From positions 1 through 31,500 of the IMG/VR virus record IMGVR_UViG_3300016263_000530: a stretch of 31,500 nucleotides of DNA; one strand, given 5' to 3'. The DNA is from a virus. Lineage: Duplodnaviria; Caudoviricetes. Position numbers and translations under genes: made by a program. The notes under the pieces are model-generated. The model was not told the origin of the DNA and ran no database searches. It saw only the letters and a list, made by a program, of their open reading frames with translations. Positions 5,969 to 24,155 of the stretch are shown piece by piece. The first letter of the stretch is position 1. Each line of letters opens with the position of its first letter.

Positions 5969-7528
5969 ATGTCTAATCCCTGGAATAAACCTTTTGAAGA
6001 CCTTAGATCTTCTTTAACTGAAGAAGAAAAAAAGCCACAAGAGAACATTGTAAAAAAAGTTAGACAAGCTGTATACGATATTCGTTATCGTGCTAGAAGA
6101 GAAGACATTCCTCTTGCAAAAGCATTTAGTCAGTACATGGCTAATAGTGGTCTTGGTCCACAGATCAAGTCTCTTGTTAGAGCAAAACTAGGGGAAGAAC
6201 TAGAACTAGATTTGGATTTTATTGAAGAAGAAAAGAAAAAGGGAGATAAGTATAAAGTTAGAGTCAAAGATGCAGCATCTGACAAATCTTATGTTCGTTA
6301 TGCTTCTAGAGAGAAGATCGAACAATTAAGAAAAAATCCACAAATTAGTTCTGTTGAAATGACAGATCACGGCGAACCATACGAAGGTAAGTATAAAAAG
6401 TCTGGCAAAAACACTGTAGGTGATGCTGATGGCGATGGAACTAAGGAGGATGATTCGCATGAATATGCAGGTGTAAAAGATAGGGCAATTAAAAAAGCAA
6501 TTGCAACTCGTAAAGAATCATATTCGAACTGGAGACAAGATTTCGAAAATTTTTTTTTTGAATCAACAATAGAGGAAAAAGTACTACCGTCTTCTCCTTA
6601 TGTTGATGTGATGCCAGAGAAAAAAAATGACTCTGCTTTTGGATCAACTCTTCCTGGAGAGAAAGGAAATAATAGATTAAGACCAAAAAGTGCTTATCAA
6701 GTGAAGACCGAAGAAGTTCAATCAATCATTGAAGAACTTGGTGGAGAATTATTAAATCTTGATGAAGTAGCTCCTCTTGCAATTGGTGCTGGTGCTCTTG
6801 CTTTAAGGGCAGCACCACATGTTATTAGAGCTGTACGAGCCGCTAGAGCTGCACAGACATTAAGTAAAGTTTCAAGATCAACCTCCGCAGTTTCTAAAAT
6901 TATTAAGAGTCCAAGAATTGTTTCTAAGACTGCACCAAAACCAACTACCCCAAAACCAATTCATAGACCTGGGCAAAAACCATCAACACCAAAACCATCC
7001 ACTGCACCAAAACCACCAAAAACTCCTGGACCAAAACCAGGACCAGGAAAACCATCGACCCCAACCACTCCAACTTCTCCACCAAAACCTGGAACTAAAC
7101 CACAACCTCATAGACCTGGGCAAAAACCACAGAAAACTCCTGGACAACCTAAACCAAGTCCATCAAAACCAAGTCCATCAAAACCAAGTCCTGGAAGAAA
7201 ACCATCACCTATTCCGACCAAACCACAACCACAACCACAAGTCCAACCACAACCACAAGTCCAACCTCAAGTTCAACCACAACCACAAAAACTTAAGTTG
7301 CCAGTTAAAACTGCTGTTGGATCTGGACTAGTGGGAACTGCAACTGCAGTTGGGACTAGTTTGATGGATAAACTCAAGAAAAAAATTGGAACCCCACCAC
7401 CTGCAGGTAGAAGAGGGCCTGGCAGCGGTCCAATCAAATCTGGTGGTAGACTGCCTTTACCAAAAATTCCAAAACTTGAAGAACCTAATAGATCAATTGG
7501 AATTGATGTTGCTAGAAAGTTGACCTAA
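5969..7528 (+). CDS. Probable virion/internal head protein with a Pro/Lys-rich low-complexity C-terminal half
   Basis: Late promoter upstream; charged N-terminal half with DADGDG; long PK/PQ-rich tract. Confidence 0.6.
   Translation: MSNPWNKPFEDLRSSLTEEEKKPQENIVKKVRQAVYDIRYRARREDIPLAKAFSQYMANSGLGPQIKSLVRAKLGEELELDLDFIEEEKKKGDKYKVRVKDAASDKSYVRYASREKIEQLRKNPQISSVEMTDHGEPYEGKYKKSGKNTVGDADGDGTKEDDSHEYAGVKDRAIKKAIATRKESYSNWRQDFENFFFESTIEEKVLPSSPYVDVMPEKKNDSAFGSTLPGEKGNNRLRPKSAYQVKTEEVQSIIEELGGELLNLDEVAPLAIGAGALALRAAPHVIRAVRAARAAQTLSKVSRSTSAVSKIIKSPRIVSKTAPKPTTPKPIHRPGQKPSTPKPSTAPKPPKTPGPKPGPGKPSTPTTPTSPPKPGTKPQPHRPGQKPQKTPGQPKPSPSKPSPSKPSPGRKPSPIPTKPQPQPQVQPQPQVQPQVQPQPQKLKLPVKTAVGSGLVGTATAVGTSLMDKLKKKIGTPPPAGRRGPGSGPIKSGGRLPLPKIPKLEEPNRSIGIDVARKLT
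7151..7288 (+). repeat. Coding tandem repeats (KPSPS units, then PQPQVQ units)
   Basis: AAACCAAGTCCATCA twice plus a partial third copy (7151-7191), then CAACCACAACCACAAGTC-type units (about 7220-7288). Confidence 0.85.
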
Positions 7529-9173: not shown

Positions 9174-9585
9174 AGATCTTGCTAAATTAGATGTTCTAGA
9201 ATCCAAACTCAATATCTACGAAAGTTTGTCTAGAGAAATGTTGGACAAACTTGAGAGTGCAGTCGATAAAATATCTGAATCAAATCAACGCATCGCTAAT
9301 ATTTTAGCCAAACATGACGAAAGAATTGAACAAAGTATCAAGACTGATGAAATTATTATTAAAATGATTGAGGATGTGAGACATTCGAATTCTGAAGAAC
9401 ACAAGTCTGTCACTACAAGAATTAAAGCAGTTGAAGATAGTGTTGCAGAACTTTCAAAATTTAAATGGCAAGCGCTTGCTTTGGTTGGTGCTGCAGTCAT
9501 CTCTATTGGATTTGTTGTCCCCTTTATTGACAACATGATTGGAACCAACTATAATGGAGGAAGCCGACAAACCCAAGTTAGATAA
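9154..9585 (+). CDS. Coiled-coil protein with one C-terminal transmembrane segment
   Basis: GAGG SD before ATG 9154; heptad-like body followed by WQALALVGAAVISIGFVVPF. Confidence 0.7.
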   Translation: MLGSNAKDLAKLDVLESKLNIYESLSREMLDKLESAVDKISESNQRIANILAKHDERIEQSIKTDEIIIKMIEDVRHSNSEEHKSVTTRIKAVEDSVAELSKFKWQALALVGAAVISIGFVVPFIDNMIGTNYNGGSRQTQVR

Positions 9586-10577
9586 TGAGTTTTATTGATT
9601 CAAAATATGTTGGTATGATATCCACGCGACTGGATAGATTTTCTAAGAAGAAAGAGGGTCTTTATAATTTTCGTTGCCCATATTGCGGAGACTCGCAAAG
9701 GTCAAAGAATAAAACTAGGGGATACTTATATCAGAGGAAGTCGGATTTAAATTTTAAATGTCATAATTGTGGAGTCACCAGATCCTTCACATATTTTCTT
9801 AAAGACATAGATCAAAACATTTATAAAGAATACGTTTTAGAACGATATAAAGAGGGTTTGACTGGAAAGGGAACTACTGCTCCCAATCCAGTTTTTATGT
9901 CTAATAAACCAGTTTTTAAAAAGGTCAAGGAACTAGAATACTTCAAAGAACTAATAAAAATCTCAGATCTAAATAATACACATCCAGCAAGACAATACCT
10001 CAGCAACCGAAAGATACCAGAGAAGTATTTCTTTAATTTCTATTTTGTGGAGGATTACAATGTCTGGGCTAAAACAAATAACTCCAAGAAAGAGTCAAGA
10101 ATCATTATTCCATTACTCACTAAAGATGGTCAACTTTTTGGATATCAAGCAAGATCTTTGGATCCAGCTGCAAAACTTCGTTACATTACGACAATTTTGG
10201 ATCCAGACTATCCTAAAGTATTTGGACTTGATCGTGTAAAGGATGACGAGACGATATATGTTACAGAGGGTCCAATTGACTCATTGTTTATACGCAATGG
10301 AATCGCTATGTGTGGATCTGACGTATCAATTGACTCTTTTTCTTTTGACGATATTGTTTATGTTTTTGATAATGAACCACGAAATAGAGAGATTTGTGAT
10401 AGAATGTCAAAAGTTATTGATATGGGTTATAAAATTGTAATATGGCCTAGTTCAATCAAAGAGAAGGATATAAATGATATGATCCTTTCCAATAATTCTC
10501 CACAAGGAATTATTGATAAAAACACCTTTCAAGGAATACAAGCAAAAATTAAGTTTACCGAATGGAAGAAGGTATGA
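9585..10577 (+). CDS. gp61: DNA primase (T4 gp61)
   Basis: Zn finger CPYCGD...CHNC and TOPRIM motifs VTEGPIDSLF, VFDNEPRN and KDINDM. Confidence 0.95.
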   Translation: MSFIDSKYVGMISTRLDRFSKKKEGLYNFRCPYCGDSQRSKNKTRGYLYQRKSDLNFKCHNCGVTRSFTYFLKDIDQNIYKEYVLERYKEGLTGKGTTAPNPVFMSNKPVFKKVKELEYFKELIKISDLNNTHPARQYLSNRKIPEKYFFNFYFVEDYNVWAKTNNSKKESRIIIPLLTKDGQLFGYQARSLDPAAKLRYITTILDPDYPKVFGLDRVKDDETIYVTEGPIDSLFIRNGIAMCGSDVSIDSFSFDDIVYVFDNEPRNREICDRMSKVIDMGYKIVIWPSSIKEKDINDMILSNNSPQGIIDKNTFQGIQAKIKFTEWKKV

Positions 10578-14042: not shown

Positions 14043-14058
14043 TGTATAGCATTTTACA
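14043..14058 (+). promoter_or_regulatory. NtcA-binding site candidate (TGTA-N8-TACA)
   Basis: TGTA-TAGCATTT-TACA matches the cyanobacterial NtcA consensus; -10-like TATTAT (14066) and TATACT (14073) follow. Confidence 0.65.
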
Positions 14059-14081
14059 AAAATAATATTATATATACTGTA

Positions 14082-14167
14082 CGTTCATCCCAGTATGGGA
14101 CGGAAGTAAGCCGACTCGGAACGGATCGTTCATCCTGAATAGGACGCAAAAGCCGACCGAAGGAACG
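14082..14167 (+). ncRNA. Tandem glnA-motif (glutamine-I) riboswitch
   Basis: Two units closed by CGTTC/GAACG (14082-14123 and 14127-14167), each with a short P2 (TCCCA/TGGGA; TCCT/AGGA) and GGAAGTAAG- or CGAAGGAACG-like junctions. Confidence 0.8.
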
Positions 14168-14202
14168 CGCCAATACCTTAAACAAGTAAAGGAGCAAACC
14201 TA

Positions 14203-14331
14203 ATGTCTCAAGTAGTATATCGCGGTGTTCCATATGACACCGAAGTTCGCCGTCAACAACAGGCGCAACAACAACCCCAACAGCACAACGAAACCTATCG
14301 TGGTGTTAAGTTTGTAAAGGAGGGGAAGTGA
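14203..14331 (+). CDS. DUF4278-like small protein, 42 aa (MSQVVYRGVPYD...TYRGVKFVKEGK), absent from the ORF track
   Basis: SD AAGGAG; two YRGV motifs; lies directly after the riboswitch. Confidence 0.8.
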   Translation: MSQVVYRGVPYDTEVRRQQQAQQQPQQHNETYRGVKFVKEGK

Positions 14332-14414
14332 TGAATTGGCTAAACGTAATCCGTAGAAAAATTAAAAAGGAACAACGCCTATATCAGGCTCAACTTGTCA
14401 TGGCTATGAAGTGA
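14331..14414 (+). CDS. 27-aa basic peptide (MNWLNVIRRKIKKEQRLYQAQLVMAMK), absent from the ORF track
   Basis: TGATG overlap with the previous ORF, strong SD AAGGAGG, and a terminator immediately after. Confidence 0.65.
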   Translation: MNWLNVIRRKIKKEQRLYQAQLVMAMK

Positions 14415-14419
14415 ATTTT

Positions 14420-14440
14420 AGGGAGGCTTGCCTCCCTTTT
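14420..14440 (+). terminator. Rho-independent terminator
   Basis: AGGGAGG-CTTG-CCTCCCT followed by T residues. Confidence 0.85.
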
Positions 14441-14479
14441 GTTTTATCAGTAGAATAACTCTGTCAGGGTTCATGAGAA

Positions 14480-18546: not shown

Positions 18547-18639
18547 GGGAGTGTAGCTCAATTGGCAGAGCGAGAAGCTTATACCTTCTGTATGCACCAG
18601 ATTAGTGCGCGGTTGGGGGTTCGACTCCCTCCACTCCTA
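18547..18639 (+). tRNA. tRNA-Ile(UAU) with a long variable arm
   Basis: GGGAGTG/CACTCCT acceptor, AGAAG-CTTATAC-CTTCT, 25-nt variable region, GGGGG-TTCGACT-CCCTC. Confidence 0.8.
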
Positions 18640-19996: not shown

Positions 19997-20187
19997 AGTC
20001 TCGGGATGACTCTAAAAGCGCCCTGGTCGGGACGTTCCCCTCAAGTTTCCTAGTTCTTAAAACTAGGTGGTGGAGTCAAGTTGACCCTCATTGTTTTCCA
20101 ATTTTTCTCAAAAATTGGTGGTGCGGATGGGGAATTTTTTCTCCGCCGAGTTTCCAGTTTTCTCGCAATCAAAACTGGTGGCGAGCC
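19997..20187 (+). ncRNA. manA-like RNA motif (wcaG motif is the alternative call)
   Basis: About 190 nt non-coding; three TTTCC-stem-TGGYG hairpin units, GGTGCGGATGGGG and a GTGGCGAGCC end; next to a tRNA and upstream of nucleotide-sugar genes. Confidence 0.65.
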
Positions 20188-20218
20188 TAGCACAGGGAGG
20201 ATTGACACCCTCCCATTT

Positions 20219-22656: not shown

Positions 22657-23595
22657 ATGAATACTATTAATTTTTTCAATTGTTTCCATAATGGAGACAT
22701 GTTTGTTTCTAAAGAATTTATTCGACAAATAGTAAACGATCTTCCAGATTTTAATTTCGGATACTATCATTTGAATCATCCTAAAACTACAAAAGATCTT
22801 CTGATTCCTCATCTTGGTGCTCCTAAGTTTAAAGAAAATATAAAATTTGTAGAAGATGATAAGGTTCTGAATGTCAACTCATGGATTGGTGCCTATCATC
22901 CAGTTCACGCAAGTGAACCTCCAATTTTTTGGAACGGTGGAATAAATTATCTTTGTCTTTATGACACTTGGAAATTTATCTTTAATAAAATAAATTCTTA
23001 CTTTGAAACTAATCTAAAAATTAAAGATTCTCCAAATGATTACATTCCAACAATTAACTATGATTTATTTGATGTTAGTGAATGTGATAAGTTTTTAGGA
23101 GAAAGAAAAGACTCTAAGAAAATTCTTTTTTCAAATGGATCAGCAATGTCAGGTCAATCATTTGCATATGACATGTCCAAAATTATAATTGACTTTGCTT
23201 TGAAGTATCAACAACATGATTTTATCTGCACAAGTAAATTTGAAGCGGATTTGGAAAATATATTTTTTACTGATGATATTTTTAAATCTGATGATGAGTT
23301 TTTTGAAACTAAAGTTCCTTGGAATAATAGATCAAATAATAATTGTGACTTGAATGAAATTTCATACCTTAGTCGATCATGTGATCTTATAGTTGGTAAA
23401 AATTCTGGTCCATTTATTTACTGTATGACTAAAGAGAATTTTATGGATCCGAGTAAATACATTATTTCTTTTAATGCTGATATGGAAGATTCTCTTGGAT
23501 ATGGAATTGATATTGAATGTGAATATCTGTTCAGTAATATTTTTGAACACCAATCAGTTGTAGAAACTGTCGAAGAAAAATTATGTCTTTTGTAA
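22657..23595 (+). CDS. Hypothetical protein, possibly a GT-B glycosyltransferase
   Basis: N-terminal HNGD and C-terminal DLIVGKNSGP resemble GT9-like motifs; sugar-cluster context. Confidence 0.5.
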   Translation: MNTINFFNCFHNGDMFVSKEFIRQIVNDLPDFNFGYYHLNHPKTTKDLLIPHLGAPKFKENIKFVEDDKVLNVNSWIGAYHPVHASEPPIFWNGGINYLCLYDTWKFIFNKINSYFETNLKIKDSPNDYIPTINYDLFDVSECDKFLGERKDSKKILFSNGSAMSGQSFAYDMSKIIIDFALKYQQHDFICTSKFEADLENIFFTDDIFKSDDEFFETKVPWNNRSNNNCDLNEISYLSRSCDLIVGKNSGPFIYCMTKENFMDPSKYIISFNADMEDSLGYGIDIECEYLFSNIFEHQSVVETVEEKLCLL

Positions 23596-24155
23596 ATTTT
23601 TATACATCACACTTAAGTTCAATTCAAAACTGTTTGGATAATCTGGATTTGAATAAAGTTGAACAACTAATTGATGAAATTAATTTGTGTGGTGGGAAAA
23701 TAATTTTTACTGGAATTGGAAAAAATGGTCATGTTGCTGCGAAGGCAACATCTACATTTTGTTCTATTGGAGTTCATGCTTTCTTCTTAAATCCAGTTGA
23801 TTCTGTTCATGGAGACATGGGAGTTATAAATGATAAGGATCTTATAATTTCAGTTTCTAAAAGTGGAAACACAGAAGAGTTAATAACTTTTTTGAGAAAC
23901 GTAAGAAGGAAGAAATGTAAGATTGTTTCAATTCATTCAAATGAAAATAATGAAAGCTTGCAGTATTCTGACTTAGATGTTAATCTTCATGTTGATCGAG
24001 AAGCCGATCATTTGAATATTGTTCCAACTTCATCAATTGCTGTGTTTACTGTATTTTTACAATCCATTGCTTGTGAAATTTCAAGTAGAAACAACATGAC
24101 AAGAGAACAGTTTATTTTTAATCATCCTGGTGGAAGTATAGGAAAACTGAAATGA
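23583..24155 (+). CDS. KdsD/GutQ-like SIS-domain sugar-phosphate isomerase without CBS domains
   Basis: TGIGKNGHV, HGDMG, SKSGNTEE, PTSS and HPGGSIG. Confidence 0.88.
   Translation: MSFVNFYTSHLSSIQNCLDNLDLNKVEQLIDEINLCGGKIIFTGIGKNGHVAAKATSTFCSIGVHAFFLNPVDSVHGDMGVINDKDLIISVSKSGNTEELITFLRNVRRKKCKIVSIHSNENNESLQYSDLDVNLHVDREADHLNIVPTSSIAVFTVFLQSIACEISSRNNMTREQFIFNHPGGSIGKLK

Follow-up and report, generated by a model that had tools for sequence, protein, structure and literature searches.

The window, that is, the whole stretch of 31,500 nt analyzed here, comes from a T4-like cyanophage and encodes helicase, primase, nrdA and nrdB (gene names read from the translations), 11 tRNAs and a wcaG RNA. 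Behind nrdB lies a cassette composed of an NtcA-type box, a predicted interlocked glutamine RNA, two small genes and a terminator-like hairpin, which is real, widespread and conserved in many related phages. The first-pass annotation had placed here the box, a 42-aa YRGV ORF, a coupled 27-aa basic ORF and a terminator, and we recovered all of them where it had put them. Its description of the cassette as self-contained holds at the 3' end, where the terminator lies, but not at the 5' end, where there is no + strand terminator between nrdAB and the box. The features are, in window positions:

14043..14058, no strand assigned, NtcA-type palindrome TGTA-N8-TACA, marking the onset of the cassette 4 nt past the nrdB stop codon, its centre about 31 nt before the aptamer
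14066..14076, + strand, candidate promoter element, either sigma70-type TATTAT (14066-14071) or late-type TATATATA (14069-14076)
14082..14168, + strand, predicted nested double glutamine aptamer as a whole, 87 nt without an inserted gene
14082..14108, + strand, 5' half of the outer core: P1 5' strand 14082-14086, P2a hairpin 14088-14100, long-range G14103, E-loop AGUA 14105-14108
14109..14116, + strand, 5' strand of the shared P3, predicted partner 14151-14158 (Watson-Crick at 5/8 positions, the others C-A or A-C)
14119..14147, + strand, inner, circularly permuted core: P1 14119-14123/14127-14131, 3-nt loop holding G14124, P2b 14133-14144, C14147
14151..14168, + strand, 3' strand of the shared P3 (14151-14158) and 3' end of the outer core: E-loop GAA 14159-14161, P1 14163-14167, C14168
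G14103-C14168 (outer) and G14124-C14147 (inner), + strand, predicted long-range pairs, formed crosswise
14161..14201, + strand, predicted OFF helix: G14167, C14168, C14170 and C14171 with the Shine-Dalgarno (SD) region (AAGGAG 14189-14194), and 14161-14163 with 14199-14201
14203..14331, + strand, ORF1, 42 aa with two YRG motifs, the DUF4278-like "Y module", PHROG 5049
14331..14414, + strand, ORF2, 27-aa basic amphipathic "B module", matching the N-terminal half of PHROG 545
14420..14447, + strand, terminator-like hairpin (14420-14437) and T run, of the intrinsic-terminator type

Three other elements of the window were recorded in passing. The wcaG RNA (RF01761, 73.8 bits; 20090-20192) lies just before a tRNA-Thr and upstream of a sugar-modification gene cluster, a tRNA with anticodon TAT (18547-18639), called Ile by ARAGORN, is unusually long for its type at 93 nt, and the 519-aa ORF at 5969-7528 has a long, repetitive C-terminal half rich in Pro, Lys and Gln.

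The nearest cultured matches of the region are DSL-LC02, S-SRM01, S-CREM1, and S-PM2. In DSL-LC02 the cassette lies 3' of nrdB, S-PM2 and S-SRM01 have it near thymidylate synthase, and in S-CREM1 it stands inverted between a heat-shock gene and the translation repressor; since its genome position differs among these four phages, it appears to move as a unit. S-SRM01 and S-PM2 carry relatives of ORF1 and ORF2 under the label of hypothetical proteins, and both ORFs have PHROG families. For comparison we assembled a viral set of 120 loci found by the aptamer pattern, the four cultured phages and the window, from which four short and three duplicate rows were removed; these loci are kin, and their counts overstate independence.

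The RNA had previously been read as two glnA-type aptamers in tandem. Two separate matches to the Rfam glnA model (RF01739, cut-off 35 bits) do fall here, that at 14125-14171 passing with 38.4 bits and that at 14082-14123 falling short with 26.3, and tandem glnA RNAs have been described (PMC2864571); the glutamine-II model (RF01704) gave a partial match in the window at 17.6 bits, below its cut-off of 33. Neither half is complete, however, and the comparison of loci supports one nested structure instead. The first half contains AGUA and no GAA, the second GAA and no AGUA. The glutamine pocket is reported to close with the long-range pair G23-C60 (PMC6212724; PMC6698751), and pairing within the halves of the window would make this pair G-G in the first half and C-C in the second. 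Among 69 non-redundant viral doubles, the long-range pairs were preserved crosswise in 69/69 and 68/69 cases, against 58/69 and 58/69 within halves, and all four Watson-Crick combinations were found at these positions. Of the 11 loci that break within-half pairing, 10 are fully crosswise and S-SRM01 (L124) retains the outer pair only, its inner pair being C-A; six further loci also keep the outer pair, the inner one being broken in L494 (C-U). The same holds for 16 hand-picked compact copies (crosswise 15/15 and 16/16, within halves 13/16 and 13/15). A tree of the YRG genes downstream (58 sequences) was built from a short alignment, with rough support and possible recombination; the common state requires six changes on it, at least four of them on well-supported branches.

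The shared P3 gave a concordant signal. Its paired fraction was 0.79, against 0.65 with permuted partners (maximum 0.72 of 1000), and the strands following AGUA and preceding GAA are complementary, match in length and show compensatory changes, the window copy having three mismatches. Strands of the fused type formed a P3 hairpin of their own in 0/26 cases, compared to 15/17 in independent tandems. The P1 strands are identical in both halves and would be equally complementary side by side, so that the P1 register is deduced rather than measured: the first strand is tied to P2a and G14103, the G14103-C14168 pair therefore requires it to pair with the last strand, and the two middle strands are then left to close a 3-nt loop. 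The linker between these middle strands was never shorter than 3 nt (the parse required at least 2). Two independent aptamers, each folding alone as in SAR86, would thus have to accommodate the G-G and C-C pairs, the missing E-loop strands and the P3 strands that do not fold alone, and we regard this reading as very unlikely in spite of the two Rfam matches and the equal P1 complementarity.

We consider it highly probable, on the strength of covariation, that a circularly permuted inner core closes off the P3 of an outer type-I core, which would place two pockets on one helix. In this nested reading the outer core has P1, P2, E-loop, P3 and the long-range pair all present. A model of the nested fold found one match in each of 5/5 cultured phage records (two of them in its training set) and none in 101 host-family genomes (41 candidates scored per genome). 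Plain energy folding recovered neither the nested nor the side-by-side bound fold (minimum free energy -28.4, nested -13.7 and side-by-side -11.8 kcal/mol; z-score 0.66).

In several relatives, including DSL-LC02 (L121), S-SRM01 (L124), L005, L006, and L013, one P2 stem houses a small but complete gene, about 45-68 codons long, that is absent from the window; its product is usually hydrophobic at the start and has two cysteines. Among long stem insertions, 93/104 passed a strict test requiring an open frame that starts at most 8 nt in and spans the insertion.

Both ORFs evolve like genes, as indicated by their third-codon-position bias: ORF1 differs from 12 close relatives at codon positions 1/2/3 in 101/68/185 cases, and ORF2, identical to its DSL-LC02 counterpart at 22/27 residues, shows 11 synonymous and 5 non-synonymous codon differences. 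The ATG of ORF2 (14331) overlaps the ORF1 stop (TGATG) and is preceded by its own GGAGG at 14319-14323. ORF1 matched DUF4278 (PF14105) with E=2e-4 and 21.9 bits, below the cut-off of 25.3, and DUF4278 occurs in 23-59% of the members of its nearest Atlas clusters. Within PHROG 545, ORF2 matches positions 1-24 and ORF1 positions 25-54. In relatives the B and Y modules are fused in either order, separate, or alone, and the last part of one natural Y-B fusion shares 19/26 residues with ORF2 (read by eye). Neither peptide matched NCBIfam, and PDB sequence searches with them returned weak, unrelated matches only.

The proposed analogy with the gifB/IF17 effector did not survive, as ORF1 corresponds to the DUF4278-type part alone, which is described as the stabilizing part of IF17, dispensable for inhibition of glutamine synthetase (GS) (PMC6316151), and ORF2 has no detectable similarity to IF7. 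We rejected ORF2 as an IF7 homologue: its profile compared to the IF7-type gave a probability of 0.17%, and the invariant arginines of the IF7-type alignment (the three-arginine GS-binding region) are missing from it. Identifying stand-alone DUF4278 peptides with PirA is also unsupported, the term DUF4278 being absent from the available text of the PirA paper (PMC8092223).

The relationship of the phage peptides to host proteins was more informative. A profile of the ORF2 family with two host rows among its members matched 73/201 genomes of the family of a Synechococcaceae-titled MAG. Among the 20 host loci included in an Rfam scan, drawn from the 24 best new loci and the seeds, 15 had a glutamine-II aptamer (RF01704) upstream of the profile match, and several host proteins are B-Y fusions. 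As far as the sequences tell, ORF1 and ORF2 are a split, order-swapped form of the picocyanobacterial peptides downstream of glutamine-II, and the cassette would most simply be a captured locus of such peptides, the direction of transfer being our inference.

Several other aptamer loci deserve to be recorded. Tandem aptamers precede a three-YRG peptide, with no NtcA box, in loci titled SAR86, SAR92, and Porticoccaceae (L289, L311, and L359), so that the Y module extends beyond cyanobacteria. Eleven cyanobacterial loci (L259, L276, L277, L283, L286, L287, L307, L314, L318, L341, and L354) have a type-I aptamer before short IF7-like peptides, with no DUF4278 and no exact upstream box; in the available published text the type-I aptamer is linked to gifB and not to gifA-like genes. 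Ten viral loci (L008, L031, L033, L046, L048, L068, L088, L096, L097, and L104) combine ordinary aptamers with short basic peptides that resemble neither B nor Y; they lack the box and possibly belong to phages of marine heterotrophs. The cassette of L360, titled Chitinophaga pinensis, is nearly identical to a Synechococcaceae one and likely reflects a binning or labelling error.

The box noticed in the first reading is indeed present. In the window alone its count is not beyond chance (GTA-N8-TAC 8 versus 4.46 expected, 7/100 shuffles equally high; TGTA-N8-TACA 2 versus 0.67 expected, 13/100 shuffles equally high), and its reality rests on conservation. The other TGTA-N8-TACA, at 23591-23606 just within a coding start, is probably due to chance. 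GTA-N8-TAC preceded the first aptamer by 30 nt or more in 62/94 viral loci with a downstream YRG peptide, when shuffles of these loci gave 4.1 boxes on average (maximum 10) and other spacers 1-4, making the box spacer-specific; the exact box is absent from the remaining 32/94. It was present in 6/24 viral loci without a visible YRG peptide. Among promoters of one type (7 duplicates dropped), the box occurred in 36/75 with an aptamer versus 0/38 without, an imperfect control that includes seemingly non-cyanophage promoters and some contigs overlapping the viral aptamer set. In 87 bacterial type-I aptamer loci sorted by record titles, we found it in 15/31 cyanobacteria-titled loci, in 2/2 unlabelled ones and in 0/54 others; this confinement to cyanobacteria-linked aptamers matches the prediction of binding by host NtcA. 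It was also present in 24/25 parsed host peptide loci, and in host genomes lies at -18 to -37 from the aptamer. DSL-LC02 has kept the identical 16-nt box despite differing upstream DNA, and with a pattern permitting 34-45 nt the box-to-aptamer spacing was 38-40 nt in 10/10 aptamer-bearing matches.

Repressing NtcA sites cluster slightly near -30 and activating ones at -41 to -44 (PMC5714215), and repressing-type sites of pirA are reported at -33.5 and -48.5 (PMC8092223). Depending on which candidate start is used, the box centre of the window would fall at -27.5 or near -31, and we consider it quite likely that NtcA represses the cassette's own promoter.

Two promoter layouts can be distinguished. 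In the first, seen at most marine loci, the box is followed after 8 nt by TTGACTAWATA and then by a -10 box within an inverted repeat, the box lying near -50; in the second, shared by the window and a smaller group, the box stands 38-40 nt ahead of the aptamer, and TTGAC is absent at the window locus. TATACT (14073-14078), earlier taken for the -10 box, is unlikely to play this role because it ends 3 nt before the aptamer and transcription would begin inside P1. The window has TATATA 13 nt past the box, the same distance that separates box and TA[ATG]ATA in 49/68 box loci, which hints at a late-type promoter with transcription starting at the aptamer. TATATATA has one mismatch to the late-promoter consensus TATAAAT(A) quoted in PMC3037559. 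Against a late-type promoter, the other late-type sites of this phage are [AC]TAAATA, with 19 on the + strand and none on the - strand, and two relatives with equally short spacing have a TGnTATAAT extended -10 instead. A search for window-like promoters yielded 10/121 matches with an aptamer, the rest being mostly noise, too few to decide between late and sigma70 types; sigma70-like or late-like contexts listed on the + strand number 31. As a separate observation, the -10 box of L005, L017, L023, L036, L123, and most marine loci lies in an inverted repeat 5-25 nt upstream of the aptamer, whose arms vary between phages yet remain complementary; this repeat is not aptamer-specific, as similar ones occur at 25/38 promoters without an aptamer.

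A perfect sigma70 promoter lies at 9527, upstream of primase-nrdAB, and the sole + strand terminator-like site between it and the cassette is a weak one at 10268. Transcription from 9527 may, and probably does, read through primase-nrdAB into the cassette, bypassing the box. The first-pass claim that the effectors are expressed only in nitrogen-replete hosts is weakened by this probable read-through. A search for RNA runs that contain the stretch listed none.

As to the direction of the switch, in the minimum-energy fold of the window the SD is masked by G14167 and C14168, the equivalents of the bases in gifB, for which a similar model has been proposed in which the long-range bases mask the ribosome site (PMC6212724). 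Relatives that end in G allow another pairing, of the E-loop strand with bases directly before the SD, and this alternative helix covaries (G:C 26, G:U 28, A:U 39, A:C 0 in 93/95 leaders, uncorrected for kinship). Given the predicted masking and this covariation, glutamine likely turns translation ON. A crude local-fold estimate of SD accessibility gave no opening in the window (0.50 free versus 0.45 bound); accessibility rose in 6 and fell in 4 of 14 members of the C-ending class, and rose in 9 and fell in 59 of 94 in the G-ending class.

These elements suggest the following mechanism. Under nitrogen limitation, host NtcA activated by 2-oxoglutarate would occupy the box at about -27 to -31 and block the cassette promoter. 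In the transcript, the outer core would join the first and last P1 strands and the second, permuted core would cap P3, so that two putative glutamine pockets would share one common helix. Glutamine would then hold G14167 and C14168 in the outer pocket, weakening the helix that masks the ORF1 ribosome site, and ORF1 would be translated, followed by ORF2 through stop-start coupling. The weakest step, which we propose with considerable doubt, is that the two peptides, which occur joined in a single protein in hosts and in other phages, together damp host nitrogen assimilation and save ATP and carbon for phage replication once there is enough glutamine. The two-layer logic, an NtcA box at a repressing position followed by a glutamine riboswitch to give nitrogen-replete expression, appears well supported by comparison, the box keeping a fixed spacing, occurring only with cyanobacteria-linked aptamers and having its counterpart in host loci. 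The explanation as a whole, a conserved cassette whose peptides are likely expressed when host nitrogen is plentiful, we hold to be moderately probable.

As to the function of the peptides, GS is the most likely single target, since published work links DUF4278 to IF17 and has proposed that the host homologues are IF-like (PMC6316151), and even so it remains a doubtful candidate. The regulation could be as described with another target, such as PII in the manner of PirA, a different host regulator, or a function in phage timing, and to this we give a chance only slightly short of even. The three-arginine region of the IF7-type is missing, PirA, a small basic protein repressed by NtcA, binds PII (PMC8092223), YRG peptides also stand behind aptamers in the SAR86, SAR92, and Porticoccaceae-titled loci, and the control of picocyanobacterial GS is itself presented as unresolved in PMC6316151.

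Other readings concern the box itself. NtcA might use it to activate, or a phage-encoded protein might bind it, so that the cassette would not simply be on at high nitrogen: in 34/36 box-bearing promoters (most marine relatives) it lies 8 nt upstream of TTGACT, near -50, and NtcA-driven phage promoters have been proposed (Sullivan 2010). We find this improbable, given that activating sites cluster at -41 to -44, away from both -27/-31 and -50, that host genomes carry the same box near the aptamer with no phage protein there, and that an activator turning the cassette on under nitrogen limitation would oppose a glutamine-ON switch. Alternatively, the box of this phage could be a decaying remnant, with expression by nrdAB read-through and the riboswitch as the sole working layer, as its non-consensus inner bases (TAGCATTT), the lack of TTGAC and the strong upstream promoter with no terminator before the box might suggest. 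The identity of the box in DSL-LC02 and its constant distance from the aptamer argue against decay, and we judge this reading just as improbable. A cooperative two-pocket sensor evolved in phages, coupled serially to host NtcA that controls a phage late promoter, might form a sharp nitrogen AND-gate that releases a two-part anti-assimilation peptide and, in many relatives, also gates a stem-held gene; we would not expect this full version to be correct.

If the proposed regulation is true, a lytic phage senses host nitrogen via both known cyanobacterial signals. The element is common rather than a curiosity, the aptamer pattern being matched by an estimated ~2,900 stored viral stretches. It would be a natural riboswitch of two interlocked cores, one circularly permuted, an architecture that Rfam scores as two poor matches, and the window version, at 87 nt, gene-free and with the G-G/C-C combination that discriminates the two folds, makes a good minimal construct. 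The function of the riboswitch-controlled DUF4278 peptides of picocyanobacteria is a stated open question (PMC6316151), and the phage peptides offer a handle on their role. Their retention by phages under the same control suggests a function worth hijacking. In terms of novelty, cyanophage glnA RNAs and predicted cyanophage NtcA sites have each been published before; in a limited literature search we found no published description of the linked cassette of box, RNA and peptides or of the nested fold.

Among known systems, the independent tandems in SAR86 and further marine heterotrophs (PMC2864571) likewise consist of two CGUUC...GAACG units separated by a few bases, but there each unit comes with a separate E-loop, P3 hairpin and long-range pair, and there is no upstream box. 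The claim that glnA motifs had previously been reported in cyanophages was borne out (S-CREM1, PMC9964418), and predicted NtcA sites have been reported as well (PMC3037559). These T4-like cyanophage reports, among them the S-CREM1 annotation, concern the same RNA element and the same box consensus, but in their available text box and RNA are listed separately, with no link to peptides and no nested fold. PirA (Ssr0692) of Synechocystis is likewise small, basic, NtcA-repressed and made on nitrogen upshift, with NtcA sites at -33.5/-48.5 that resemble the two phage box spacings, whereas it binds PII and is reported absent from marine picocyanobacteria (PMC8092223).

The gifB/IF17 leader of Synechocystis (RF01739; PMC6212724) resembles the phage outer core in the P1/P2 core, E-loop and long-range pair, and the phage locus in its NtcA box at a position likely to overlap the promoter, its downstream DUF4278-type gene and a predicted anti-SD starting at the long-range C. 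The phage P3, in contrast, is shared with a permuted core instead of ending in a loop, and the downstream gene is phage-borne and without the IF7-like GS-binding half; the word "phage" does not occur in the main text of PMC6212724. Closest in their peptides are the glutamine-II (RF01704) loci, such as PMM1846 of Prochlorococcus MED4 (PMC6212724, PMC6316151, PMC6698751), which also combine an NtcA box, a glutamine aptamer and a short peptide. The hosts use a single pseudoknotted aptamer where the phage has a nested double core, and their peptides contain the same B and Y modules, often fused as B then Y, where those of the phage are split as Y then B. Both phage modules are similar to the picocyanobacterial downstream peptides and stand, like them, behind an NtcA box and a glutamine aptamer.
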